Assembly (NCBI RefSeq): GCF_000002075.1
Contig: NW_004797656.1
Location: 73,308 to 137,307, forward strand
DNA: 64,000 nucleotides
Direction: 5' to 3'
Source of the DNA: Aplysia californica
Taxonomy: Eukaryota
The notes under the pieces were generated by a model. The model worked only from the letters and a program-made list of their open reading frames with translations. It did not search any database and was not told the DNA's origin. Shown here piece by piece: positions 12,401 through 49,674 of this stretch (its first letter is position 1; each line of letters begins with the position of its first letter). The position numbers were made by a program, and so were the translations under genes.

Positions 12401-14120
12401 TACCACTGTACATGACCCCCTCCCCCGATCATTTTTGCAGGTGATTGTCTTGGCCAGGTAGCCATAATAAGAGCAAGTTTGACTAAAATATGGGTGTCTG
12501 CATGTGTGGGCTATTTGTTGTTTGGGGTCCCAGTGAGAACCAGTTGCTTCTGGCATCTTTGGGAATTTCCATAAATGCAGCATTGTTGTGGTGATTGATA
12601 GCATATTGAAACTGAAACGGAGCCATTGGCAACACAGTGTAAGTGAAGGGAAAGAAGGAACAGTGAAGGGGCCAATTGTTATATTTACTAATTGCAAGCT
12701 TTAACCGTGTAAGACTAGTAAGAGGAACAATTAGTACAATTGGAAAAGTTTATTGCCCTTTGCTCAAATCACGCCCTTGTGAGGATTTATTTAGAATGGG
12801 TTCTTATGCAAAAGGTGTTACAAGAGAGCAACAAACATAAAAAAGAAGAAGAGATTTAGGATGATAGCTGTTTGATGAGAAAGAAGGAGCAAACGACTCC
12901 GGAGCGCCTACCAACCACCCACCTTCATGAATCTCAGGAGGTATGACTATGATATAATTGTAAACATTTTATGCCCACATTGACTTAATTTTGCATTTTT
13001 TTATTTAGAAGGTGGGCTGCTTCAACCCAACCTGTCAGGGTCAACTCAGGCTTAGAGAGATACAGTGTCTAGGCAGGCAGATGGAGTTACTCGATAAAAA
13101 AAACTTCACAAAAGATTTGCACTCACAGCTTTTGTAAGTGTCTGTTAAGAGCTTGAACATTATCCCTCAGACTCAGATGTATTATTTAGAGAAACTTCAG
13201 TGAATCAGGATGAGTTTCAAGATTAATTGTTTCATTGGGTCTTATTGCGCTTTTGAATTCACTGTCATTGATATTCTGTTTTTTTAATGACTTGAAAGGA
13301 GGAAAAAAAGTCTGAAATATTATTTCTTATGTAGTGAGTGCCAGGTTTCATTGACTTCCGAATCAATTACTGCTCGTTCACTGCACATAGTGTACATAAC
13401 CTTGAATACCTTTCTTTCAAAACCTGTCTCTAAGCATGCATGTTCAGAATACACACATGGAATACATAGCATTGTAGGATGATATTGGATCTGACCACAT
13501 TCATGCAAGCAAAACACAATTATGAGGCCTCACTATCACACACTACACAGAGAGGGAGAGGTAGGGAGACAAACATATGTAAAGAATAAAAAGGTCTAAA
13601 GTTTAGATTCCGAGAGTGACAATAATTAGTCAAACGAAAGACATGAAACAGTCAATGTTTAATATATCACTCAAAATCAGTTCACATGAAGACCCCTGGC
13701 TGGCCAGGGGAGATAAAAAGTCCGTTATCACACCAACAGAGGGCACAACTGTGCTAGTGGAATGGAAGTCCTACGCCACAAGCTTCTCTGTAGTCAACAT
13801 CGGTCCTGGTGTCTTTTCTGCATATATAAGTTCACTTTGTTATTTTCTCATCCATGTCCATTTGTCATCAGAAGGTCTGGCTCATCACAACAGATCCTGT
13901 AAATCCCACGGTGCCAATCCCACCTTCAAATGACCAATGTGGTCTCACTGGGCATTAAAATTTGACAGAAAAAAAAAAAAATTCCACATAGTGTACTTTC
14001 TGTGGACTTATTATTTGTAAAAAAAAATTTTGTCATTCAGCAGAGAAGTTGATTCATAAAAATTATCAAAGAATAGGGGATGCAATTTACACAGAACAGT
14101 TCTACTGCTCGTATCAAAGT

Positions 14121-26100: not shown

Positions 26101-26339
26101 ATAACACACCTATCGTCACTGAGAGCAAGGTTACATGAGCGCACTGCACTCACCCTCGTACAGGGTGATACGCACACTGCTGACTGCTGGTATTGGGACA
26201 CATCTTTGCCTGTAGTGTACATAAAGCACTAGGATTTTCTTGAATATAGTCATGTGAATGTGAGGGTGGATGCTGGGTGGTGGGGTGAGATCGGAGATAG
26301 ACAGTGTGGTGATGCGTTGAGCTGTATGTGTGTGCATTA

Positions 26340-26383
<44 letters not shown>

Positions 26384-29300
26384 TGTGTGGTTATTGAAGA
26401 TATGAATCGGGAAGTGATCATATAGATTACACAAGAGGGGTGAGAAGAACAACGTCATGGTTTCGACCTGACAAAAAAGCAATTTTATTTTTGTCATTAA
26501 GGCTCATCAGCAATACTTTCTTGCTTTGACATCAAACAAAGAACACGCATGACCCATCCTTCTATTGTTTTATCAAAAACGGGTACTTTTCATGATGGAA
26601 GAGAAGAGAAAATGAAATTGTCTGACAATAGAAACCAAGCATCACATTGTAGCAGCGGTTGTCAAGAAGTCCTGTACTAAGACAGAAATTTGTCAAAGAT
26701 TAGATATCCCAAATCAACACTTTCCATGTTTCTAAAGTCGAGAAAAACCCAAAAACACCGCATTGGATGTCAACCCGACAGAAAATGAGCGGGCTTTTCC
26801 AAATTTGAAAAATCAGCAAGCACATGCAATGCCTCTTCCTATCTCTGATGCAATTCATAACACTACATCGAAAAGATCCCAAGCATTGCAGGAAAAAAAA
26901 ACCAATAATAAAGAAAACCATGATCATAGCGTTAGAAAACAACAGCAAAAAAAGCTCGCTAACTAAAACGACAGAGTGAGATACTTACCTTTGCCAGCTT
27001 TTTCTCCAAGTCAGCAAGCTGAGATTTCATTTGTTTCATCTTAGACTGTTCAGCAGTGGAGGCCTTCTGTGCTTCTTCCTTAGCTTTCTCCACAGCCTGG
27101 CATTATAGCAAGACACAACAGTTTCATATGAACAATTCATTCATTAAAGAAAAAAAAAGAAGAAGACGTAAAAAACCTGACATAAAACCGAGTTTTTCTG
27201 CCTGTTCTTCTTGTTTTTGCTTACTTTGACTCTCCCAATCTTATGATCTGAATAAAAAGTATAGCACACCTAGAAAGTACTTCAGCCTGCATTCAAAATG
27301 TTCCCTCCAAAGCTATTTGATTGATAAAACGATCAGGAAATAAAGAAGGCCTCCGACTTCACGAAATATTTGTCTATAAAGGGTGTAAAATGGAGTACCG
27401 GTACTAATTAATTTCTGCAACAACCCTGCACTCCTCCATAGCACATTGTCTACTACAAGAGGAAAAAAGGTTAAAAAAAAAAAAACAAGAAAAGACAAAA
27501 GCTTAATTGTATCTTAAGAAATGGAAAAGGTCAATACGACATAGTTGGGAGCAGAAATGTTCAAATTTGTAAACGCCAAACAGCCCCCTTAACTTCACTC
27601 GCATCTCTCCACATCTCTGTGACTATAGCATGGTAAAAATGGTTGTTTTTGTTGAGGTCACATGGGTGCCTTGTAATCTCAAAGTATTCATTATAGGTGT
27701 ATGTCGGTTCATAGGATAACCTCATCAGAGCAAAGCTTTCATAATAAAGTGGGTGTGCCAAATAGCTCAGTCGTTATCATCATGTTCAACTACTGTACAC
27801 ATGTGTGTGATCCAAAGTTCTTATCCAAGAAAGTTACTTAAATTCATAATTATGAAATATTGGCAGTTGCAATTTAATACATCATGATGCAAGCATGCAA
27901 GGCAGAGTGCTCAAGCTATAGAAGATAAAAAAGTATACACTCATCAGAAAATGGAGCTGAAAGAAGAATTCAGAGTAATCCTATTATTCATGCAACATGC
28001 TTGATTCTATTGTTATTATTTGGTATGGTGTGCATTTTAAAAATAAATTGTTATTCATATGAAACAGCATTTATCTTACAATAAAAACAAAGAATTCGCT
28101 TTGTTGTGTAAGAACAAAACCGTGCCATTTTCTTACAAAAGTATAAAGAAGAATGATGAACCAAGATAAAAACATTTTTGTCCACATTTGACGCTATTCA
28201 ACAGAGTTCACTCTGGAGTTGGTATAGAAACCAGATGACAAATTACACGAGTACCTCCTCTTTTGCAAGGCGCAGCTGCTCATCCATCATTCTTTTCATC
28301 TCCTCTTTCTGGTGGCCAAGCTAAAGTGAAAAAAATCTTCAAATGTTTTTGAAGTGCAAAATTAAATAGCTGAAAAGAACTATGCATTTATAACGTGTTC
28401 AAAAGGAATAGGCAAAATAAACTAACTACAAAAACATTTTAAAAACTTCATATTTACCTCACCACAGAGACCTGAACACAAAGTCATGAATACTAAGCCT
28501 CATACAAAGGGTTAACTGAAATAATGGCATGCAGCAATGTTTGTTCCATTACTTAAAAAAAGAACTGTCAATTTGGAATCATAAGAAAACTGAGTAAAAT
28601 ATTATAGACTGCTGGCTACTGTTAAGTCCATATCGAATGTGACTTTTTAAAAAAATAATCTTTGTGTTACTGTGAGCAAAACTTTGAAATCTGACCGTTT
28701 TAAGGGCACAAATTAAAAGCATAGTCTCTGATGATCATGCAAAGGGTTACCTTCTATAAATTTAGTAGGGCAATTTCACTTGACCTGACGATATTTGGTA
28801 GATTTTGTGTACACTGGTATATTTATGTTTGCCAATACATTACCCTCTAACTTTTTTGAGAAACCAAAAGCCCTGTATTTTAGGGATCATGTCCGACAAA
28901 AAAATCTTCAGAATGTGGATCTGAAAGAATACTAATAGCTCATAACAGGTTCTTGCTGGGCTAAAATATGTTCTGTATAAACAAACATAAAATTAAATAC
29001 TTTTATTGCTTTGTTTTGTATCGGGTACTGTATACCTAATGGCAATTTTAAAAATTTATAATTCTGGAAATTTATGTTGTAGCTGTGTATTCAGGTAAAA
29101 TAGGGAAGTGTCCATTTTTGTTTTTAACTACTCAAACTCCCATTTTCTACTTAACAAAAGAAAGGAAGATGACATTGTTCTTCTAAAGAAGTCTCTGGAT
29201 TATGCCATTATGTAAGATGAGAAAGTTCATGGGTAAATTCTATTTTGAAGCACAGACTGTAAAAAAATCTTCTTAACAAGCCGTCACTATCAACAAAGCT

Positions 29301-29998
29301 TCTTTTGACTGCACATTAATAATCCAAATAAGTCTGACAGCTTTGCTCCGATTTACTTAAATAATATCCAGTATGTGACTGACAAAGACCCCAATAAAAC
29401 TGTGAACTGCAGATAAAGCTTCAAAAGAAAAGGAAGACAGAACCATCATAAATCATACCATCAGCTTTCCTAAAGGGCTTGAAAATACAGTGAAATGAGA
29501 TAAATCTTTTAACAAAACAATAGCCTTATGTTCATGAAAATGAAGGCTTGAGGTCATTAAAACCAACTCCACTCAAATAGAAGGAAAAAAGTCCTTCACA
29601 CACACAAAAAAACTTATTTTTTAAAAAAACATGCAACGTCTTTGAAATCACAAGTCTAAAGGAAAAAAAAAAATTTGAGGTAAAACAGATTGCAAGCACA
29701 AGATAGAGGAATGCAGAGTAAACAATAACTGAAAGTCATGGTGGACCAAAGAAACCACCAAAATAAACATGTTAAACAGTTAGATATATAGTCACACAAT
29801 TATCATATGCAGCAAACAATTCTGTGATTATATATGTTTTTCAAAAACTTAAAAGAAAAGGCACACGAAAGAAAGAACAGCATAGGAGACAAAATGGCAT
29901 GAAAGCAAAGCACAAGATGGTTCTTTCATACAAAGGCCTATCATTAAAGAAGAAATTCAATTTATTTGTATTTTTTGTGCAAGAGAGAAAGAGAGAGA

Positions 29999-30049
<51 letters not shown>

Positions 30050-33000
30050 CGTGAAAAGTTAGTGTATCTGTGATAATATGCGTGTGATTGTTAGATAGCG
30101 CATAAGATGCCATGAGGGCTCAAACTTGTCTTGACAACAGATAAAAAATATCTGCAAACATTTTTTGTTAAAAATATGAAGGAATAACTGCCATCGTAAA
30201 TCCCTGGGTTATGTTCTGTACTACAGCTGCACATTTTAAGCAGCCTGACACCTTGCCTATACAATGATGTGGGAAAGAATCTAAGAGGAAAAGTAAAACC
30301 AGGCGTACATAATTAAAAAGATTCCTGTTCTGCAGTTTCTCTTTATATTATCAGCTTCAATTGTACAATCTTTACAGTAATCATTTGTTGCCCTGCAAAA
30401 TACGTAATTTTTTTAAGATGCAGAGATGTATAAATGATTAAGACGAAGAGATAATCACATCAACAAAAAGGAAGGAAGGAATGCAGAAAGACTTTTTGCC
30501 TCTTATGAGTTGGGTGGCATTTAGCATTGCTGTTATATTCTTGTTGTAATAGCAACTGCTCCCCCCCCCCCCCCCGACTCTCATTTTACCCCAACCTTTC
30601 AAACAGAAAGAAGAAACAAGAGTAATACCCACCCACCCCAAAAAATCAAACTGTTAAAAAAAATATTAAAAAGAACAAAAAGAAAAAAAGAAAGAAATAC
30701 ATGAATAAACAAAAGTATTTCTTTAACCCCTTCTATCTTCCAAGAGGAAAAGAAATATAAAAACAAAAACAGAAATAAAGAAATACAAATATAATAGATA
30801 CAAATGTGAAATCAGTTTCTCTACATTTTGAGTAGAAAACCCAAATACATATCTGAGAAATTAAGAAGACCCATCTCATAAAAATGCCAATGAAATGAAG
30901 TGTACACAAAACTTTAGCAAGCTTAGCCCATAAAAATTAAAGCACTGTATAGGCCTACTCTTTCAACCCCAAATAACTACAAATGCAATCCCATGGAAAA
31001 CTCTCAAGAGACCAGACACTTTGGGACACAAAAAGGCTAAACCCTCATCATGCTATATATTTCTTTAGCCTCCTCCAAACAATGAATTTTGTACACTGCG
31101 AGAGAAGGCACGAACAATATTATCTAGCAAGAAGAAGGTAAAAAATACTAATACATCTATACATGCATGTCAAAGACTGTAAGAAAGAGTACATTTTCAC
31201 TCATTAATATCATGGCATCACTGGTGAATGACATGTCATCAAACAGTGAATAAGTAAGCACATGACAAGCATTTCATTTCTATTAAAGAGTTTACCAAAT
31301 CATCAGCCTGAAAGCAAATAAAACAAGTTAAGTGTCAAGTGCCAAATTCAGTAATATATGTACATTCACTCTGAAAATAAGTCACTTAACGACGGAAAGT
31401 CATTTTGAAATGGCGATATGTATCTCTTACTTAACACTGTGCATCCAGTTCTAAATACCACTAGTACTGTGTCGCTGAGTAACAGACCGGATGTAAAAAG
31501 AAAAGAAAATCCTCTGTTGCTGAGAATGTGGACTATGTTTCACTGCAGACAATTTAAGTCTCTGTTTTTCTTAAAGTTGCAATTGTTGCAACATACGATA
31601 TTCCGACAAATAACCATCACTTATCATTGGAATTATAAGACTCTAACTAACAGTAAAAATGAAATGTAACAAAGAAGCAGCAGGAGTGGCAGCTGCAATG
31701 CAAAGCCCTTTACAGGCAAATTTTGAGTCTTATAAATAAAACAAACAGGCGTTCAAAGAAAAGAAGGTATCATCCACAAAAACAAGAGAGATCTTAAGAC
31801 AACGTATATAATTATATTTCTGAAATAAAAAATCAAGGTCATCTTGAGAAATAAGAAACGATCAGTATTTTTGAATGACTCTGCTTGCTGAGCAACTAAG
31901 AGTGTCATGGATATTAAGATAGCTGAACTTAATATCATGGCAATATGACTTCATTTTCACATTTGTCATGCATATCAAATTTGTAAAGCACTTTAAAAGG
32001 CACGGAGGCTACCTATTTAATACAATCAACTAAAAAGAATTCTATGTATTTGTAGTAACCTTCATGGCCTAGAGTGGTTAAAGAGGTTAGAAATGACAAG
32101 ATGCATGAAAATAAATGTTGTAAATAACACAAAGCTGGAATGATTCCAGCTGTAAAAGAAATGACTTTCTCAAAGAATAAAATCAGCCTTGCTACAATCT
32201 CATTAAAGAATCTGAGAAGACTTTATCTTCACTTAATTTGTAAAATAATATTTCTTTCCTCCACAAAGGCTGTTAGTGACAAAAAAACATAGCTACAATC
32301 ATACATTTTGACAATCTCTCTGTCCTCTACCACAGTCCCACACTCAAATGGTACCATGGAAAAGATATGATGCATATGAGCCTGCTTTGAATCTTTGATG
32401 AGACATTTTTGACTCAATATTATCTGAGCACAATGAATAGCTGTCTCCACTGTACTGTTAGAGATCGACATAAAATCAAGGTCTTGCCATTTGAGTTTGT
32501 TCTAACAGAGTTTTACGGCACTTGCAACACAAAAAAGTCATATAAGTGCCGAAGATTAGAGGTGTTACAAGAGAGTAACAAACATAAAAAAGAAGGAGGA
32601 AAGATAAGGACGACAGACTTTTTATAGGAAAGAAGGAGCAAACTACTCCAGAGCACCCATCAATCACCCACTTGGTATTGGAAACATGGCATTATATTGT
32701 AAGTGGCAGTAAAACTGCACTATACCATATCATCCTAAACAATGCCTGAAGAAACTAAAACATGTATAGAGCCATACACACCATTTTCTTGGTCGTCTCT
32801 TTCTCCTGTGCAGCTGCCTCCATGAGCTCATTGTGTTCATGCTTTAGCTGTAGTCAAAATAATTTTATTACAAACACATTCACATTACGCTTAGGAAATT
32901 TGTCCACACAACCATTTTGAAACAAAAGAGCAACTTTGTATACATTTCCAGCTACTTTCAATGTGCTGTTACACCTAAAAAACCATCAGGGGTCAGATTT

Positions 33001-36000
33001 AAACAAGAACAAAAACGTCTGACAGAGAGTTAACGCAGCCAATGTGTGGCTTAAAAGGTAAAAATCATTTTAAAAGTGGAATAGGGGTTTCTAGTACAGT
33101 GCATTCGACATGTGCAAGGAATAAGAATCATAACCTGGTTCATAAGGTACTAAAGTAGTAATTAAACCTATAGTGGTGAGAAACGCAGGTATTGTGTGCA
33201 CACTTCTAATGAAAAAACTATCATGCATAAAAAAAAAGTGTAACATATATGTCTTTATGCAAAGTTAACAAGTACTAAAGTTGTAAGACATGAAACCATT
33301 AAAGTGGACTTTCCCTCCATGTACTAACATTTGCATTCATTTGGGATAATAGACGGACTTTGGTAATGTGTAAAATTCTCACCTGCTCCACCATGATTTC
33401 ACTTCTCTCCTGTTGCTCTTTCATAGCATCCATTTCTTTATCTGCAAACAAAAATGCACATCATTTATATATATGTCAAAGTTCATGTCGAAAATTTGAT
33501 GACTTATTTTAAGCTTTGCGTCCCATATCGCAGTGACATTATATCATCTAATGACGGAAATCAGAAACAAAATTGAAGACACTTAAAATTGAAAGTGCAT
33601 TAAAGCTAAATGTTCCTACTCCAAAGGGCATTAGCATGATTGTATGCCCTCTCTCTTGGCATACTGCAATTTTTATACGTATGATTTTGTGTACACTGGT
33701 TAATCTACCACATACATACACACTAGTGCTGTGCGATTTTGAGGAAACAAAAATTCATCCAAGCATCGAAGCATGAGCTCAAAATTCATGCTATTCGAAT
33801 AACTCTGTTGAATGTTTTTTTTCTTGTATACGATAGGTCCAGACCTAACTTCCGCTATTCAACATTCACTTAACTATTCACAGCCCCGTCGAATGGTATT
33901 TTCTTATACACAATAAACCCAGCTCTAACTTCCGCTTTTTGAAGTACCATCAAATGTTTTTTTCTTATATATACGCTACGCCCAGATCTAACTTCCGCTA
34001 TTCGAAGCGCCATCAAATTGTTTTTTCCTATACACGATAAGTCCAGCCCTAACTTCTGCTATTCAAAGCGCCGTCGAATTGTTTTTCTTCTACATGATAA
34101 GTCCATCACTGTCACAGCACCAGTCACTGAGCGCGCGTGTGTTGTTGTCACAGACAGTGCGGTGTGATGACATGACGTCACCGTTCATAACACTTCTAAT
34201 TTCAAATAGCCTAGGGGAAGGGGAGCTTATTGCGACAGCTAACTTCAAGAGAAAAAAAAACATTCACTGCGCTTCAAGTAAGAGTCAACTGCCCTTGCTT
34301 GAGCTATACATGGTGTGACGAGTGAATATAAGGGATATTCTCTAGAGGAATATTTTATATCTCTTTTTGGCTCCTCCTATCACTCTGTCTCGTAACCATC
34401 AAATAAACGGTATTTCTGAAGGCTATATTTATCTAAATTATTTTAAATATACTATGCTCTAATTTTACTAAGTTTAAGAAAAATGAGATGAAAATCCGTT
34501 ATCTGTTTTAAAAAAAAAAATCACACGGCATTCAAATTGCTCTGCCACACTTCATATAGCTGTGAATAGTGCAAAAATCATGAATGTCGAATAGCAAAGT
34601 CGAATGGGCACAGCTCTAATACACACTTCTTTCTATCACTCAAAAATACTTTACAATTCAAGGTGGCAGTTCAACTTTTTTTTTTTACTTCAAAAGTTAA
34701 AAAAAGATCTCAAAGCATTCTTACGAAGAGTCAAGATTTCTTCATCCTTGATATCCAAAGCCTCTTCCAGTCGAGAAATCTTTTTGTCTGACTTTTCTAG
34801 TTTCTGAGTCGCTTCTTCAAGCTCCTCTTGTGCTGTATTCAACTGGTCTTGAAGGGCAGAGTCAACACGAGGCTGAAAATTTACAAACATTTTGATGTTG
34901 AAGAAACTGAAATGAAATCAGCACTAGAACAATGACAAGTGAGGGGACCCATACTTTTCTCTGCAATTCCAAACATGGCTATTCACTGATGAAATCAAAC
35001 AAAATTTACAAAAAAGAACAAAATCTGAGAGTAAGTCAGACACTACAAAATGAAAAGTCTAACAGGGGTGGTTTACAAATAATATGGTCAGAATCCTTAC
35101 ATTACTTTCATCTTTCAAAATTTTGAAAGGGAAAAAAGTTTCAAAAGTCACAACACTGAATTTAAACAGGTTCCAATAAAAATGCCAGTGAATAGAGAAT
35201 CTGGGGCAGATAAATAATTTTAAGAAAGTATGTCAGAAGAAATCTTTTGACTGATTATTGGGATAACAATATCAAGGAATAGAAATTCTTGAAATAGCTG
35301 ATATTGTGTGACAGTAGAAATACTGGTTCATGTGAAGCCAAGTGTAGAAAAAAACAAAAACAATATGAAGACATTGAATTTCAAATAAATCACACCATAC
35401 GATGAAATGATTCAGCAAATTACTTCGTACTTTTGTACTACACCCTCTGTTACAGTTTTTTTATGGTGAGATTTCATCTTGGATATTACCTTTCTAAATT
35501 TTTACTCCTTTTCATATTTTCTTATTTCCTTTATTGAGAAAAAGGGAAAGGGAAGGGAGAGATGTAGGCCTTGGCCCGAGTCATGAGCAACTGCTCAAAC
35601 TCTAGAGAGCAAACATTGCTTAGTAGGAAGGAAACTCTCTACAGAAGCACAAAACCATAACATATTTTAACCCTTTCAGCACTGGGCTATTTTCGTCCCT
35701 CACTTCCCTTTGGCCGAGGTAATACGGGAGTCCTTGACCTCTCAGGCCTAGCCAATGGCGACTGTTTGGCGACTGTGTCTGCCATTTTTTGCAGTCAATT
35801 TAGGAGATGACATGCAAAATATTTTTTCAGAAGCAATTGGACGGATAATGGTAAAAATACCCATTTGGGTATGAAGCGGCCAGTGCCCTGTAAGGGAAAT
35901 ATATATGTGTCACTATGCAGTGGTATCATGCGCTCGTCAATTTTTGGGCATATGGAGTTATTGATATAATCTGAGAGCTGATTTATTTGCTTTGCTTCCA

Positions 36001-39000
36001 ATGAAATAAATAATCCATTTATCTCGAACAGAACTCTACATATTTTCTTTTGAAGGAAGTGAGGTTGCCTAGTCACAGTGTTGAAATTAGCGAGAAAATG
36101 GCCGCCAAAGATTAGTAACTCCAATAGCTAAGGAGTCTTTGAAAACTGAAAAATGACATATTTTGAGCCTTTATTCACTGTTTTTCAGTAATATTCACAT
36201 GGAAATGTGTTATCATATGGATATATAATAGGTTAAGCCATACAAAAAATTCAATAAAAATGTCCAAATTGGCAGAAAAATGCCTGTTTCTCCGATTTCA
36301 GTATTTTGAGGAGCGCCTGATTTCACCACGCTGCCTCACATGTGCAACTGGGCTTGTGGGAACAAAAACTTGCGAGAGAAATACACATGACTGGGCCTGT
36401 AACAGTTATTCGAAAATAAGGACATTGTATCCTCCTCTTCGTCTATGGAACATATAACATGATATCAAAAGTATATATTCCGGAACAAACCATATTATGC
36501 AGAATTACTTCAAAACTTGATAACTCCTTATCTCCTGAAACAGCCAAAAACAAGTTTCTTTGACTGGGAGTTCTTTCAATGCATGAAGAACTATCAAAAT
36601 AGGTACATTTGTTTGGATTTAATAACTAATTTGAGTTATGGAAGATACTGTAAAACAAATAATAGAGGATGATTCGACAAATTAAAAATGCATACCATGT
36701 AATCTCTTCTTTTTAGTCAGATAACATAAATTTAGTTAGTTGAATGTTAGACAAACAAACAAAAACAAAAAAGTCAGTGGCATACACAAAGACAATTTTG
36801 TAGTGACTTCAAAAAGTAATGTTAAAAAACATATTACATACAACAACAACATCAAATATAAAACAAACAAAAAGCGAAAGACAAAAAGTTCCAAAGTTCT
36901 CAAACAGCATGTAAAGAAAGCAGATATGCAGCAATGCTCAGACAAAGCTATGTACTCTCAAGCTTTTTGCAGTGATAATCTTTACCAGAAGAGCTGAGGT
37001 ACTTCTTATGTGGGCAATTCTTTAGAGAAATATAATGGCAAGCAAAAATGGCTTAAATTATGGATTTGAAAAAATTCAATGTGGTAAATGTTTACGGAAA
37101 TTTTATTTTTATCACCTTAAATTTTCCGTCTGATTTTATTCAAGGCATAAAAACAGACCTTAAAATCTTTTACCATTACCAAATATAAAAGTATGAGCAC
37201 ACAAATTGAGGACAGACACGGCATGATGGGAAGATATAGTGCAAATGTGGGGGCACTCTTTCACTTATAGGCATAAAGCAGTCAAGCAGCAAACAGCAGA
37301 CAGGAGTCCTCTGTGATAATAGCATCTTCATGTAAGTACTGCAACGTTTTTCTATTTTTTTTGTGATTCACAAGGTGAGGAAATCATGTGTCAATGGGAT
37401 GGAATGATACTTGAAGGATTCATTTTGTGGCCATAAGTGGAATTCTAAAGGGCAACTTTTAGTTCTGCATAAATAATAGGGGAACAATGTGGGCATTCTA
37501 TGAAAGAGAGATAAAAAGGTAATACTTTCTTATTCCTGTGGCAAATTTTAGGTGGTTTTACAACTACAAAAGATTGAATAATCTGTCAGAAGATGATAAA
37601 AGAACTTCATAGGCCTTACTCTCTCCTGCAAACAATGTATGTTCTGATAAAAATGATGGACAATCCTCCCGCTCATGATTCAGTATTATTCAGGGGGGGG
37701 GGGGGGGGATTTTCAAAAGAGTGAGAAAATGTGCAGTAAAGCACAGTGTGGCACCACAGAAGAATAGCACAGGGAGAGTGCGGATGGAATGCTTTGTGGT
37801 GTGCATACTACACAGAAGAGATGAGCAGTTTTGTCAAAAGAATCCATACCCATGAGGTAAGGGTACTTTCAAAGGGTATTTTGCATGTTTTTATTAACAA
37901 CCAAAAATATATTATTGTGGAAAAAAGAAAAAGAAGAACGTTGAGTCAATTTCAACCAATATCCCGAGAAGTAAACATATTGGATTTTATCATGACCATT
38001 TTTAGTCTTTTTGTTTAAAATGAAATTTTGTTACATGTTATTATCCATCACAATGTTAAAAATATCCATTTGTTCAATATATTGTTATCTTAAATCTTTA
38101 AGAACAAAAATATGTTTTATGACACTTCAAAAAGAAAAACAATGTTTTCCAGTCACTTCATCACCCATTAAAGATTAAGAACTCATATCCAGAGAAACTG
38201 CAAGATAGTTTACCACAACGGGAGATCCAGACGCTCTTGAAGATTTGCTTTTATTCGACTGGCAAAAAATAAAAGTAAAATAAATCAGAAAGAATGGTAA
38301 TATGATTTCTAAACAACAGATTTAATACTGACATTTTGAACAAATGATACCATAATAAGCCGAAGCAAATTTTAAGTAATAGCAAAAAATTGAAAGCAAA
38401 TTGAACTAAATTGAAATGGAAATGTGTAAAATTTGCTAAATCTATACTTATGCTTGTAAAAATGTAATAAAAATGAAAAAGATATGAGAAAGCAGATTCA
38501 AGGAATATTGTCCTCATTCTACAACATACAGAACTCTCATCCATGACAAATCGTCTCTCCATGAACCTCTCATCATCTTCCTCTTGTTGCTTCATTTGCT
38601 GCTGCTGCAGTTGAGTTTTGAGCATCTGGATCACACCTTCATTGCGAAGGATTGTAGCTTGCATTTCCTTGAACTTTTCCTCTTTGTCGGCAAGGTCACT
38701 CTTCTGTTTTGTTCTCTCCCTAACAATTTTTGTCTGCAGATTTTTCTGAAAAGAAAAAAATTAGTAGGTAAAATAAATAACAAGTGGTCCTAAGTATTCA
38801 CTTCAAATACTGAACTCACAGTCAATATTTCAAATTAAGTATCTTCTCAGTTTTTCATTCTTATATTACACAGTACTCAGTGAGACACTCCTACTTTCAC
38901 GCTGTTACTTGTGAGTGGAAAATTGGACAAGCAAGCTAAAAAGACAATGTCAACTCATGGAACTCCTGCATCACATGAACTAGTCAATTGTGCCTTCTGA

Positions 39001-45000: not shown

Positions 45001-48000
45001 GAAGTATACATTTAGATCCAGTTTTCTGGGTTTACTAATCTAAATATAAACAATATAGAGACCAATCAAATCAATAGAAACTCAAGCTAGCTATTACTAT
45101 TTCGCTTAGATTTATTAAATAAATCAGATCTGACAGTATTTTTATAATGAATCATAATTATCAATCAAAAGCCTATTATCTTCAGACAGTTTGGCCATAG
45201 AAATACTTTTACCACTACTACTACTACTGCTACTTCCTTAGTGTAGTGAAAAATTCAGATCAATATTTTTTATAAACACTCATTAGCTGTATTCTAAAAA
45301 ATTCCTTAACTTTTTATCTCCGGCAATCCGCTCCCAGCGACTCGCGGTCGGAACCACTCTGCCGGTGAGCCGCTGGCAGCGGCTCCGACACATTCCTTTA
45401 CAAAGACTTTGACATTAATTTAAAATTACTTTTCGGCAATTGCTGAAAACAGGTCTCTTTTATTGGGAGTTCATTCATTAGATTAATTATGACTATCAAA
45501 ATAGGTCGACTTGTTTTGATTTAATAACGCATTTAGTGACATTTTTGTCATTTTTAGACCTAATACCAAAAAGGGGGCCTATTTCGTAGTGGGTTTACTC
45601 CCCACGGAGATAAAGAGTTATTATACTAACTTAAATAATCCACAAGCTTTCTACAAATCTTAAACAGGTTTATAGCTGTGGCAAAAACGTCACATCTCGT
45701 CAATCGGCGATGTTATACTAGCCAGTTTCTTCGGATTTTCCCCAAAATGCCTGTGCCTTTGATAGCAAGGGGTTTTACTATATGAGCCTTATGATGGCAA
45801 ATGGTTAAAAGCAAGTCGTTCATATTTTTCAAATCATGACGCTCTTTATTGAATGCATGTTTTGAGAACCTTTAGTATTTTCATGAAAAAAAAAACAGTG
45901 TTCACAATAAAATCAAGTTCTTGTAGTCAAACAAGCTTTGTCACTGGTAAACTGTGACATAGGCCGTATGCGTATGAAAAATGTGTGTGAGAAGCGGGAA
46001 GTGCTGTGAACAATCCCATTTTTCTTGTGACTGAGATTTATGGTATTTTATATAAATTGACAAACATACGGTAACTTTTTAATCTAGCCTCAGTTTTTGT
46101 GGAAAAATATGATTAACTCTTTCCGGACGTATCGTCGATATATCGGCGTGATCCACACCCCTTGCGGATATATCGCTGATATATCGGCTATGATGAGGTA
46201 CCTCAGTTTACTTTCATTTTAACATGATCCATTATCTATAAGTACTTTTTATTGTAACTGAAAACTTGGAAAGGGTTTAGGAAACCAAAACATCTAGTTT
46301 CACTTTGTCAAAGCGTCCATCTGGCGAAAAACAAGTGAATTAGTTCTTGAGTCAACAAAACGATCTAACCGGACTCAGTGTGAATATCATAACTCAAACA
46401 AAAATGGGAATATTGCATTCAAATAAAAAGCTGCACATTCAGAAGTTTACGGAAGCTGCTCTTGGCCTGTATATGATAAGATAGCTATGCTGGTTCGCTT
46501 TCACATTTTTAGTGACAGTGTGTGTAATTTTTTCCGTCAAAATATATTTTTCTCACCACCATCGCCATTCCTAACCCTTGCAATGCATACTTATGTTCAA
46601 AATTAATCCTCGAATCATAATATGTTGGAATGTATTCCTTATTCAATTTCCTTCAATTTGATATATCATATGTTACATTTTGAGCGATGGTTATGCTTGT
46701 ATGAAGCTATTTTGTACATCACCTGTGCAGCCGAATCGAGTCACAAGTTAATTACGTTTTGACCCCAAAACAATTAGCCTATGTCCGGAAAGAGTTAAAT
46801 TAAGACAAATTGATACAAACTGCTGTGCAAAGTATGGATGACATTGATTCACCCGTTAAAGAGATATTTAACGAAAAGTTGCACCACGAATGTTTGGCCG
46901 CACTAAAATCTAAAATTTAGCAGGGCCTAGAATCTAGATCTAGTCCAGTAGGTTTAATTAGGCTATAGTTTATAGTATATAAAATAGTTTATAAGTAAGA
47001 GTAAGCACACATTTGTGGGCACTCCTGTACAATTGCGCTCCCGCGTTAGTTCTAGCACAAGGAGCTTGCTCTAGCACTAAATCACACAAGGAAAGACTAC
47101 TGGATATCGATACTGATATAAACATTCGGTATTGATGTTTTATCGGTAGATCTAGCCTACAAAATGAAAAGTGAATTTCACTTGTATTTAACAAGGCAAG
47201 GGGGGTTTCAGGGGCCCCCCTGACCACCGGGAGGACTTCCGTAATGAGTGACCACTAGGACCACTATTAAATCTAGATTATACTCAATGGCTTCCAAAAT
47301 CATGATGGGAGACCGAAAGCCACAGTATAGAATCTGTTCATGACAAAATTACGGTAGTTTGCCCATTTTTAGGCCCAGTTCAGTTTTGAAGGTCTGAGTC
47401 TGGGATTAGTAGACTTGAATCAAGGCGCAGCAATTGTTGACCCCACAGATTTTATCTACTTCCGTTGTTAGGGAGCGCTGAGTTGCCAGGTTTTCTTAGG
47501 TTTCTAACCAAATTCTCACCGCAATTAATTCTAGCAAAATACATTGTATTATTATTTCGCAACGAGCGACCAATATGAAACTGAGAAGAATAGAGAGTTG
47601 TTAGGGTTAGGGTTCAGTTTAGGGATAGGGTTAGAGGTATGGGTAGGGTCTGGGGTAGGGGTTGGGATAGGGGTATAGGTTTCGGGGTTGGGATAGGGGT
47701 ATAGGTTTCGGGGTTGGGATAGAGGTATGGGTAGGGGTAGGGTCTGGCCCGGGGTAGGGTTTGGGGGATAGGTCTTTCCTTGTGTTTGATGAAGGTCAGG
47801 TGTTGGGTTGGGAGGGGGGAGGGGGTAGGGTTAGGTCTTTTCTTTATTGTGTTTTTTTTTAGGGTTAGGGTTTGGTGTAGGGGTAAGGGTAGATCTCCTC
47901 TCTTTTTTGTTGTGTTGCTTGAGGGTTAGAAGTGGGGGTGGGAGGGAATAGGCTTAGGGAATAGGCTTAGGGTTAGGGTAAGGCCTCTTCTTTATTCAGT

Positions 48001-49674
48001 TTGTGAAGGGTTTGGGTTTGGAGTAGGAGTAGGAGTAGGGTTTGTGGAAGAGTTAGGGTTAGGATGGTAGGGGTGGGCTTAGGGTTTGGGGTAGGGGTAA
48101 GGGTAGGTCTCTCCTTTATTTTCTTTGTTGAGGATTATTAGGGTTGGGGTAGGAACTTGGGGTTGGGGTAGGAATTAGGGGTTGGGGTTAGTGTTGGGTT
48201 AGGGGTATGAGGTCTCTTCTGTATTGTGTTTGTTGAGGGTTAGGTTTTTAGGGTTACGGTTGAGGTAAGGGTGGGGGTAGGGGTAGGGTTAGGGGCTGGG
48301 TCAGGGTTCGGGTTAGGACTCTTCTTTATTGTGTTTATTGAGACGGTCGCTCGTTGTGGAGGGAATGTTTTCTTTTCTTATAGTGTAATTGGTGGGGTGG
48401 GGTGGGGGAACGGGGGGTTCAGGACGCAGCACTTCTTTTTTTATGAGGGGGGGGGGGGAGAGGGAGGGGGCTTGCCTTCTTGATTAAGGTAAGTTTTGGG
48501 GTTAGGTTGTTTTTTTTTCCTTTTCTTCTTCCGTTCAAAACATGTGCGTAGTGAAATCGTTATTAGTATAATTTTTCGCTTCATCCTTTACCATGACACG
48601 GGCGTACAAAAAGAATGAAATACAAGTAGACCGGTGCGGAGAAAGCCGCGCTTGTTCACGATGGCAACTCAACAAATGGAAGTCGTTTCTTTTATATATA
48701 TGAAAATGAGGTAAAATCGACTCAGAAATTTACTCTTTTTTTTCTTTCTTTTTTTCTGTTTTTTTTAAGCAAATCGCATCAGCTTTCCTAATTTTGTGAA
48801 GGAACCTCGTCAAAACCCTTCGAGGTAAAAAATAATTGCGTTTTGAGAATTTTGAAAGGCGATACACTCCCACTTAACTGAAGTAGGTATATAATTTAAC
48901 TTTTTTTTACTCATTGTTACACCAGCTTTTGGCATAGTGGTAATGCTGCTGGACTACTAATCATGTTTGCTTTCCTCACTCACAGATTTGAATCACGGCC
49001 ACGAGACTTATTTTTCTAATCATGTCATATTACTGTGTATGCTTTCAGATATTAACATGTCACTAATAATACCCATCAGGTGAAGAGACAAAGGAAGGCA
49101 AAAAGAACACAAAGTAACACAAACTCAGTTTACTTTCTTTATTGCCCAACCACATACTAAACCCTATCTTTTACGTAGCCCACTCAAAAGTCCCTTCTTT
49201 ATTGCGTAGGTTGGGGTGGTCACTCGTTACGCAAGTCCTTCCTGACCACCTAACAAAAACATGGGGAGTTTAGTTTCAGGGGGGCATGCCCCCCCCCCCC
49301 CCCCCCCCCCGCCCTTAATTTGACCATAATTTGAATTTTCGCAATTAAGTTTGATTGGCTATGTCTCCATAGGCCTATCGGCACGCACATCAAAAAGTAA
49401 TCGTTAAGAACCAGAAGTAATCGTTGGTGGGGTGAAAGCGAGTATCCCTACCTTAACGGCATAACCGGGACCGCAATTGTACAAGGAGTGCCCATTTGTG
49501 ACATAGATTAAGACATTTTACAGACCTGAACATGTCATTGTTGGCACTAGAGTCCCCATATATTGCTAATATATGATCCTGAAGGTCTTCTTCGGCTTTG
49601 TGATATGCATGTTGGTCATTCGGAGACTCAGATTCACGCCCGTCTTCAGTCCCAAGTGCGGGAGAATCCGCCAT
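14121..49674 (-). CDS. C10orf67: C10orf67-like (DUF4709-family) coiled-coil protein, about 592 aa, 19 core coding exons
   Basis: Minus-strand exons in transcript order: 49526-49674, 43157-43277, 41465-41556, 40841-40892, 40438-40512, 38530-38745, 38214-38258, 34725-34872, 33383-33441, 32782-32847, 28255-28320, 26989-27096, 25770-25861, 25367-25432, 24239-24326, 21976-22041, 21187-21298, 16932-17007, 14121-14202 (TGA). All junctions are GT-AG and phases match (1779 nt total). Translation includes RPALADNAKIGFFSLDSASQTEVTEI, LRKAFRQQLADAIARL and WEKKFAILQQSMHALKDESYLRQTLQRQ. These match my recollection of human C10orf67 (KIGFFSTDHATQTD, RKSFNQQLADAIA). The middle region is a long coiled coil. 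Confidence 0.85.
14228..14670 (+). mobile_element. TG...CA-terminated MITE family B. Other copies or fragments at about 3645-3870(-), 4682-4900, 22353-22770, 36050-36340(-), 43359-44518
   Basis: Shared start TGTGAGGCA...GGTGAAATCAGGCGCTTGTCAAAAT, internal GGCGGCCATTTTCTC, and inverted end TTGACG..CGCCTGATTTCAC...CA. Superfamily not assignable. Confidence 0.7.
14742..15500 (-). mobile_element. 5'-truncated L2-clade LINE
   Basis: The minus strand reads LKELHWLPIKERIKYKTAVLCFKCINDSAPFYL...PPRALRS...FLFFGPQVWNELP...FKNQLKHFLF, typical of the L2/CR1-group ORF2 C-terminus. It ends in the L2-like tail GCGCATTGAGCA...AAATGCGC..TATAAATGC(TAT)n. A similar tail is at 9298-9368(+). Confidence 0.85.
15814..16612 (+). 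mobile_element. pogo/Tigger-like MITE family T2, copy 1
   Basis: Starts TA-CAGTGGAGTCCACTTATGACGAG and ends CTCGTTATAACAGGATTCCAC (inverted). About 800-bp colinear homology with 42038-42837. Confidence 0.75.
18637..20516 (+). mobile_element. piggyBac-type MITE family P1, copy 2, carrying a nested insertion
   Basis: TTAA at 18633-18636 and 20517-20520. Termini TCCTCGTCCTGCG / CGCAGGACAAGAA. Homologous to 1706-2594 apart from the 1024-bp insert. Confidence 0.75.
18916..19939. mobile_element. Tc1/mariner-pogo (Tigger-like) MITE nested in P1 copy 2
   Basis: 24-bp TIR CAGTAGTCTCCG(C/T)CTAAACGCACG with one mismatch. TA duplicated at 18914-18915 and 19940-19941. The empty site GGTAGCTC is present in the paralog near 2004-2011. 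Confidence 0.9.
21043..21122 (+). repeat. Dispersed repeat end, second copy at 45722-45809
   Basis: CCAGTTTCTTCGGATTT...AAAATGC...TTTTAC.ATATGAGCCT.ATGATG.CAAA..GTTAA in both places, ending at TTAA. Confidence 0.6.
26344..26380. repeat. (GT)n microsatellite. Others: (GT)n 30004-30046, (CT)n about 4150-4218 and 54493-54532, (GA)n 9220-9249
   Basis: Directly visible dinucleotide runs. Confidence 0.9.
32551..32670 (+). repeat. Dispersed ~110-bp repeat. Other copies at 9991-10098 and 12812-12921
   Basis: Shared GGTGTTACAAGA.AG.AACAAA...GAAAGA.GGAGCAAAC...AA.CACCCAC in three places. Confidence 0.7.
33724..34618. mobile_element. hAT-type non-autonomous element with an internal ~60-bp tandem array
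   Basis: Perfect 8-bp TSD ATACACAC at 33716-33723 and 34619-34626. TIR TAG(T/A)GCTGTGC. About 4-5 copies of a unit TTTTTCTTATACACGATAAGTCCAG.CTAACTTCCGCTATTC at roughly 33810-34110. Confidence 0.85.
39032..39276. mobile_element. Short piggyBac-type MITE family P2, copy 1
   Basis: TTAA flanks. TIR CTC(G/T)TTATCTC. The 3' part is similar to 45310-45617. Confidence 0.7.
42038..42837 (+). mobile_element. pogo/Tigger-like MITE family T2, copy 2
   Basis: TA-CAGT(del)CCACTTATAACGAG ... CTTGTTATAACAGGATTCCACTG-TA. Homologous to 15814-16612. Confidence 0.75.
43359..44518 (+). mobile_element. Family B MITE carrying a nested ~700-bp element (about 43533-44257)
   Basis: Family B termini are present. 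The insert begins after TTAA and has inverted GCCTACACC / GGTGTAGGC ends. TTAA followed by a purine start is Kolobok-like (inference). Confidence 0.6.
45310..45617. mobile_element. Short piggyBac-type MITE family P2, copy 2
   Basis: TTAA-CTTTTTATCTCCG ... CGGAGATAAAGAG-TTAT. Same termini as 39032-39276. Confidence 0.65.
46117..46794. mobile_element. piggyBac-type MITE (678 bp)
   Basis: TTAA on both sides (46113-46116, 46795-46798). TIR CTCTTTCCGGAC(G/A)TA, 14 of 15 identical. Confidence 0.85.
47560..48356 (+). repeat. Telomere-like G-rich array (TTAGGG/GGGGTA variants) with a periodic spacer, bounded by 12-bp inverted repeats
   Basis: CAACGAGCGACC at 47560-47571 and GGTCGCTCGTTG at 48345-48356. 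Seven GGTCTCTTCTTTATTGTGTTTGTTGA-like spacers lie between the G-tract blocks. Confidence 0.8.

Follow-up and report, generated by a model that had tools for sequence, protein, structure and literature searches.

Does one intron of a predicted coiled-coil gene in Aplysia californica hide a chain of very short exons? The DNA examined is a stretch of 64,000 nucleotides (nt) from contig NW_004797656.1 (positions 73,308 to 137,307), referred to here as the window; coordinates are window positions unless a locus is named. The window carries a C10orf67/DUF4709 gene on its minus strand. An earlier note on this DNA had proposed that the intron between two 66-nt exons of this gene, the focal intron, holds four microexons, A to D, that are included together and jointly preserve the reading frame. 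That interpretation as a whole is partly supported. We consider it probable that unit B is an alternative, in-frame 12-nt microexon that causes a register shift of the stutter type, that A and C are chance sites, and that the four-exon chain does not exist.

Unit B and the annotated isoforms of the host gene

The coding span of the host gene is 14121-49674 (minus strand), with 19 exons, or 20 when unit B is counted. The model analysed has 592 codons, from an ATG at 49674 to a stop at about 14121, and its translation is identical to XP_035827039.1, A. californica C10orf67 isoform X2 (P0001). Two N-terminal exons hold the match to Pfam DUF4709 (PF15821; E=2.7e-37, 128 bits against a cut-off of 27), and long helices are predicted C-terminal of it. 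The gene is a member of the C10orf67/DUF4709 family, as the earlier note had suggested. It had also placed the exons that bound the focal intron correctly in phase 0: the upstream 66-nt exon is at 32782-32847 and the downstream one at 28255-28320, both on the minus strand.

RefSeq isoform models derive from the alignment of RNA-seq data, and isoforms subject to nonsense-mediated decay (NMD) are usually not entered as proteins. Five RefSeq isoforms of Aplysia C10orf67 were compared (XP_005103756.1 and XP_035827039-42.1). The upstream 66-nt exon is present in all five. The downstream one, which encodes 22 aa in two 11-residue repeats, is a cassette exon that is skipped in X4 and X5, a point missed by the earlier note, and it is also skipped in isoforms of Littorina, Babylonia and Ostrea. 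Unit B (31296-31307, minus strand), which is in frame 0 and reads ADDL, is present in X1, X3 and X4 and absent from X2 and X5. As all four include/skip combinations of B and the next 66-nt exon are annotated, B is included or skipped independently of that exon.

Microexons have been defined as exons of at most 27 nt in one study (PMC8378409). With a length of 12 nt, AG/GT flanks and both inclusion and skipping in RefSeq models, B is an alternative microexon, and the product longer by 12 nt that the earlier note had envisaged is found among the annotated isoforms. The exon itself is thus already in the RefSeq annotation; its regulation and conservation are not covered there.

Units A, C and D against the splice-site background

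The four units are all on the minus strand: A at 31431-31450 (20 nt), B as above, C at 29459-29469 (11 nt) and D at 28458-28471 (14 nt). Their positions, lengths and AG/GT flanks are as the earlier note described them, and its arithmetic is also correct. A+B+C+D is 57 nt long, in frame and free of stops, B alone is in frame, and A, C or D alone leads to an early stop. A+C+D (45 nt), which it missed, is likewise in frame and stop-free; any other combination with A, C or D runs into a stop.

To place these units against background, all AG..GT units of 3-30 nt were scored with matrices trained on the 18 introns of the gene itself, which is a small set. In the focal intron, 25 units reach the scores of the weakest A-D sites, or 5.6 per kb; the remaining 17 introns have 4.0 such units per kb and the antisense strand has 5.2. 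A-D as a set are therefore not above chance. Of the 7054 four-unit chains that can be formed from the same 25 units, 942 keep the frame without a stop (185 of 1468 when the chain contains B). With so many chains closing the frame, frame closure is no evidence once units have been picked after the fact.

Taken singly, the units differ. The AG-free zones are 8 nt for A, 59 nt for B, 6 nt for C and 19 nt for D, compared with 14-112 nt for the real acceptors of the gene. The acceptor of A scores -2.1, lower than all 18 real acceptors (leave-one-out minimum 1.0). Units like C are expected about 1.5-1.6 times per intron, as judged from antisense sequence and shuffles, and C is in no isoform. A and C are likely pseudo-exons, that is, chance splice-like sites. 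B ranks first among 388 candidate units by splice-site score, and none like it is present in the other sense introns (29 kb) or in antisense sequence (33 kb). D has an acceptor score of 7.7 and a donor score of 8.1, shifts the frame and is in no isoform; D-like units number none in the 29 kb of other sense introns and one in the 33 kb antisense. The thresholds for D were taken from D itself, and on these a D-like unit is present in 17 % of 200 shuffles. Of the four, B alone stands clearly above background, with D a less certain second.

A further unit on the D acceptor was missed in the earlier note. D' (28463-28471, minus strand) combines this acceptor with a donor that makes the exon 9 nt, in frame, reading VSV. 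It ranks second among 118 in-frame, stop-free units of 6-39 nt, with B first. D' is unannotated; it may be regarded as a lead to a second Aplysia microexon, a candidate suggested by its splice sites.

A frame-compensating A+B+C+D cassette is not supported, as the translated isoforms show no co-inclusion and the A and C sites lie within background. Neither A, C, D nor any part of the 19-residue chain peptide is found in the five Aplysia isoforms. An origin of A-D from a repeat was rejected; all four sit in single-copy DNA.

Conservation in molluscs and beyond

A total of 191 homologous proteins were examined, of which 171 include the exon junction at which B is inserted and 20 do not; many rows are isoforms of a few oyster and mussel species. 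Inserts are found at the junction in 115 of the 171 proteins, three of these rows being misparsed. A four-residue pattern, A-[DE]-x-hydrophobic, recurs at this same junction in gastropods and bivalves. Among gastropods, ADEL is found in Haliotis rubra, H. rufescens and P0331, ADQV in Pomacea, and ADDM and ADEM in further gastropod records. In bivalves, the corresponding insert is AEAL in Magallana, Crassostrea, Saccostrea and Ostrea, and AEEM in Pecten and Mizuhopecten. The homologs keep B in the ADDL frame, which goes against the proposal that B is read in two frames. Nothing resembling the 19-residue chain peptide was found in any of the 171 junction-bearing proteins; this peptide contains W/C, and neither residue occurs in the inserts at the junction (0 of 115). 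A protein search for short fragments returned two proteins; ADEL is present in one of them and VSV in neither.

The inserts vary within species groups. In oysters MALE, AEAL and NSD occur in seven combinations, Haliotis has ADEL and LGSG, which vary independently, Pecten has AEEM, a 12-residue insert and GSG, and Mytilus has TDG and a 10-residue insert. Because the inserts combine freely, we infer that they are separate exons, two or three per lineage. The likeness of D' to the scallop GSG and the oyster NSD is restricted to length, position and the middle Ser.

Among 26 metagenome loci, three (L005, L016 and L022) yielded both flanking exons, with the 66/66/108-nt layout preserved in all three. 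In both L005 (5106-5123) and L022 (404-421), the unit with the best score in the orthologous intron is 18 nt, in frame and followed by GTAAGT, and is a candidate microexon. The two units are identical at 11 of 18 positions and the introns are otherwise not alignable. When 300 x 300 shuffled introns were compared, in pairs that are not independent, none equalled this match. In L016, the orthologous intron contains no B-like unit, the best match being 3 nt. The protein closest to L005 and L022, P0208, is placed by a quick tree on a long branch outside the gastropod-bivalve clade, so that these two loci are probably from animals other than gastropods or bivalves, a soft placement.

At the DNA level, alignment of the three orthologous introns to that of Aplysia, which the earlier note had named as a check, gave no match at A-D. 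A 30-nt match of window 29169-29198 to L022 (0 of 200 shuffles) and an AT-rich match to L016 (2 of 200 shuffles) were found; both are unexplained or due to chance. The metagenome contigs also include a DUF4709-family gene of about 535 codons that appears to lack introns (L001:6299-7873 and L002:4697-6271), which suggests a relative in a unicellular or compact-genome eukaryote.

The B acceptor and its putative regulators

According to PMC8797185, microexons under the control of the eMIC domain are marked by an extended AG exclusion zone, a UGC not far from the 3' splice site, a pyrimidine tract and a strong branch point; the domain, which is part of Srrm234, arose in bilaterian ancestors. The region upstream of B (31308-31368, minus strand) contains the 59-nt AG-free zone, TTAAC at -24, a pyrimidine tract and UGC just before the acceptor; a weaker branch-type motif is at -31. 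B therefore has the first three of these features and a near-match to the fourth; A, C and D do not show this combination. The three acceptor features are combined at only 5 of 1672 intronic AGs of the gene. The UGC next to the B acceptor and a UGCAUG about 130 nt downstream of B had both been pointed out before, and both are present.

B resembles the eMIC microexons described in PMC8797185 in being short, in frame and alternative, in its acceptor, and in that the regulator domain is encoded in the genome. It differs from the fly eMIC targets reported there, which have short introns, as the introns flanking B are long (1.5 and 3 kb). Molluscs are not mentioned in the main text of PMC8797185.

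The Aplysia genome contains an eMIC-bearing Srrm234 gene. A first genome search for SRRM_C/eMIC at E 0.001 gave no match. The locus, on the minus strand at G000:C323:552694-603240 (L027, L030 and L031), consists of a cwf21 exon followed, about 46-50 kb downstream on the same strand, by two collinear SRRM_C pieces (profile positions 1-55 and 56-67). These join in frame across a GT-AG intron, and the larger scores 28.3 bits against the Pfam cut-off of 27. Retention of the intron inside the eMIC domain would lead to a stop after a few codons, and this intron is a possible point of regulation.

The Rbfox-type UGCAUG downstream of B is at 31162-31167 (minus strand), and the chance of at least one such motif in 150 nt is 0.077. 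There are five UGCAUG in the focal intron, about two being expected from the other introns, which is a mild excess (Poisson p ~0.05). A literature search found no paper on eMIC microexons in molluscs or, judged by title or abstract, on Aplysia microexons; the supplements of the paper in which eMIC was first described may list mollusc ones.

Predicted effect on the coiled coil

AlphaFold predicts one helix, covering residues 255-404 with B and 255-402 without it, with a confidence near the junction of 83-86 and 86-89, respectively. The earlier note had expected a helix-breaking insert; the predicted helix runs on through B. The Gly-rich inserts GSG and LGSG of other species could be true helix breakers.

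Conserved positions in 32 mollusc alignment rows have a hydrophobic period of 3.5 for residues 255-331 and of 3.7 for residues 332-398, and each period beats 200 of 200 shuffles. With these periods before and after it, the junction (residue 341) is at a change from heptads to hendecads, and the skippable 22-residue exon corresponds to two hendecads. The hydrophobic period is also what suggests that the C10orf67 helix pairs as a coiled coil. In PMC7710910, a four-residue insert is classed as a stutter, a three-residue insert as a stammer and a one-residue class as a skip. As four residues in a heptad-patterned helix that is predicted to stay helical, B would be a stutter. The mollusc inserts mostly fall into these classes or are whole heptads and, unlike the known discontinuities, the one in C10orf67 would be switchable by splicing. 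No paper linking microexons to coiled-coil stutters was found in the literature search, in which DUF4709 gave no paper and the C10orf67 titles among those listed did not concern splicing or invertebrates; subscription journals were sparsely covered.

RNA reads and other features of the window

Of 24 listed data sets, the raw polyA runs X21-X23 and the contig set X8 were aligned to window 30900-35000. Exon depth in the raw runs is 0 to 1.3, too shallow for any junction call at A or B. A 207-nt X8 contig is unspliced across both A splice sites and may be pre-mRNA or DNA, and a 1789-nt X8 contig matches the exon at 34725-34872. The focal intron also contains, at 32507-32660, a high-copy repeat of about 165 nt, with 4453 first-look candidates in the genome, the best about 90 % identical. 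This repeat is very abundant in the polyA reads, where its loose ends resemble poly(A), and looks like an expressed element of the SINE (short interspersed element) type.

Further alternative splicing of the host gene is suggested by a 45-nt phase-0 exon (38214-38258) in a disordered linker. Isoform X3 is 15 residues shorter than X1, which is the length of this exon, and the exon is probably a second cassette exon. A second GT donor lies 8 nt beyond the end of the 66-nt cassette exon (28247-28254), and its use would shift the frame; two UGCAUG are found downstream of this cassette exon, at 27994 and 27899. The intron after the exon at 26989-27096 has 13 weak AG..GT units in 1.1 kb and contains a 56-nt AG..GTGAGT unit (26154-26209) that is frameshifting and outside the 592-aa model. 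A degenerate, CCCTAA-rich, telomere-like tandem tract occupies 47590-48330 in the first intron. On the plus strand, open exon-like units at 13009-13133 and 57055-57163 are likely pieces of neighbouring genes; the former is about 1 kb past the C10orf67 stop, tail to tail with it.

Competing explanations

If B acts as a register-shifting microexon, it would add ADDL to the long predicted helix, which would stay continuous. The eMIC form of Srrm234 may promote inclusion of B via the AG-free zone, the branch point and the UGC, and inclusion would probably be neuronal, perhaps with a contribution from Rbfox. With the insert, the hendecads downstream would be rotated by about 40 degrees against the heptads upstream, and this shift in register may tune partner binding or stiffness, leaving the protein folded.

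Several observations weigh against this explanation. B is known from database gene models and conservation, with no junction read for B among the RNA data used here, and its score, taken by itself, is matched or exceeded in 26 of 200 shuffles. TTAAC, the branch motif, is not an exact CUAAY, and among the 18 constitutive acceptors of the gene five have an equally long AG-free zone and four have UGC. No insert is recorded in Elysia (three species), Plakobranchus, the four pulmonate genera Biomphalaria, Bulinus, Physella and Bradybaena, or in Nucella, Argopecten, Mactra, Mercenaria, Pinctada or Owenia, and Littorina and Babylonia are without an insert of the B type. These absences may be due to loss or to gaps in annotation. 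AlphaFold modelled monomers, with a predicted template modelling score of 0.27, and prediction readily carries a helix through a short insert. Finally, the strong sites of D are left unexplained.

In the most probable of the rivals, B is real and the D acceptor is also used, either for the 9-nt in-frame D' or for the 14-nt D as a poison exon that leads to NMD; D' would then be the Aplysia counterpart of the scallop GSG, the abalone LGSG and the oyster NSD. The rank of D' directly behind B and the lack of D-like units in the other sense introns speak for it, as do a UGCAUG about 60 nt upstream of D, at 28533, and the second insert of three or four residues that other molluscs have after the B-type one and that is also found alone. 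However, D and D' are in none of the five Aplysia isoforms, even though RefSeq models of oyster and scallop do include three-residue inserts. Only one of the three residues of VSV matches GSG or NSD, the D acceptor lacks UGC and has the short AG-free zone given above, and the shuffles and self-derived thresholds reduce the weight of its scores. In addition, an ASK insert in a gastropod cluster could stem from an alternative donor or acceptor. On balance, we regard use of the D acceptor as doubtful, about a one-in-four prospect in plain terms. Inclusion of A, C or D that shifts the frame and leads to NMD could occur at a rare level.

A broader proposal, to which we give slightly less credence, is an old, splicing-controlled register switch of two or three in-frame microexons that predates the gastropod-bivalve split and is perhaps lophotrochozoan-wide, with Aplysia keeping B and D', and D serving as an outlet to NMD.

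Slightly less likely again is that B is real and near-neutral, short phase-0, in-frame exons being tolerated where the helix is polar and weakly packed, and coming and going there without a tuned function. The sequences and lengths of the inserts vary by lineage (3, 4, 7, 8, 10, 11, 13 and 15 residues), few positions among residues 333-340, just before the junction, are conserved as hydrophobic, and many species have no insert, all of which speak for it. Against this, the pattern A-[DE]-[DEAQ]-hydrophobic has been kept across gastropods and bivalves, and an 18-nt in-frame unit is common to L005 and L022 despite introns that cannot otherwise be aligned.

The 57-nt co-included chain, with B read in two frames and partial inclusion leading to NMD, is very improbable: that the chain and A+C+D are open, that UGCAUG is in mild excess, and that Caenorhabditis elegans has regulated non-triplet and dual-coding microexons (PMC13247117) is outweighed by its lack of any isoform or homolog, by AG-free zones of A and C below those of any real acceptor of the gene, by the many chains that close the frame, and by independently varying mollusc inserts that are all in frame themselves. 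The C. elegans tnt-3 microexon described in PMC13247117 represents the class to which such a chain would belong; it is a single exon with support from reverse transcription PCR, and the frameshifting units here are known from sequence alone.

Implications

The surprising part of the earlier note, a frame-restoring chain of four exons, was not upheld. What the locus offers is B, a concrete mollusc microexon that is conserved, has an acceptor of the eMIC type and belongs to a classic model of neurobiology; its likely regulator locus has also been located. Together, B and the Srrm234 locus make it easy to test whether molluscs use the eMIC microexon program of bilaterians. The inserts at the junction, of 3, 4, 7, 8 and 11 residues in one helix, also form a natural series suited to asking whether splicing tunes coiled-coil register. 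If the old register switch is real, combinations of its microexons would add 3, 4, 7, 8 or 11 residues, corresponding to a stammer, a stutter, a heptad, a skip and a hendecad.

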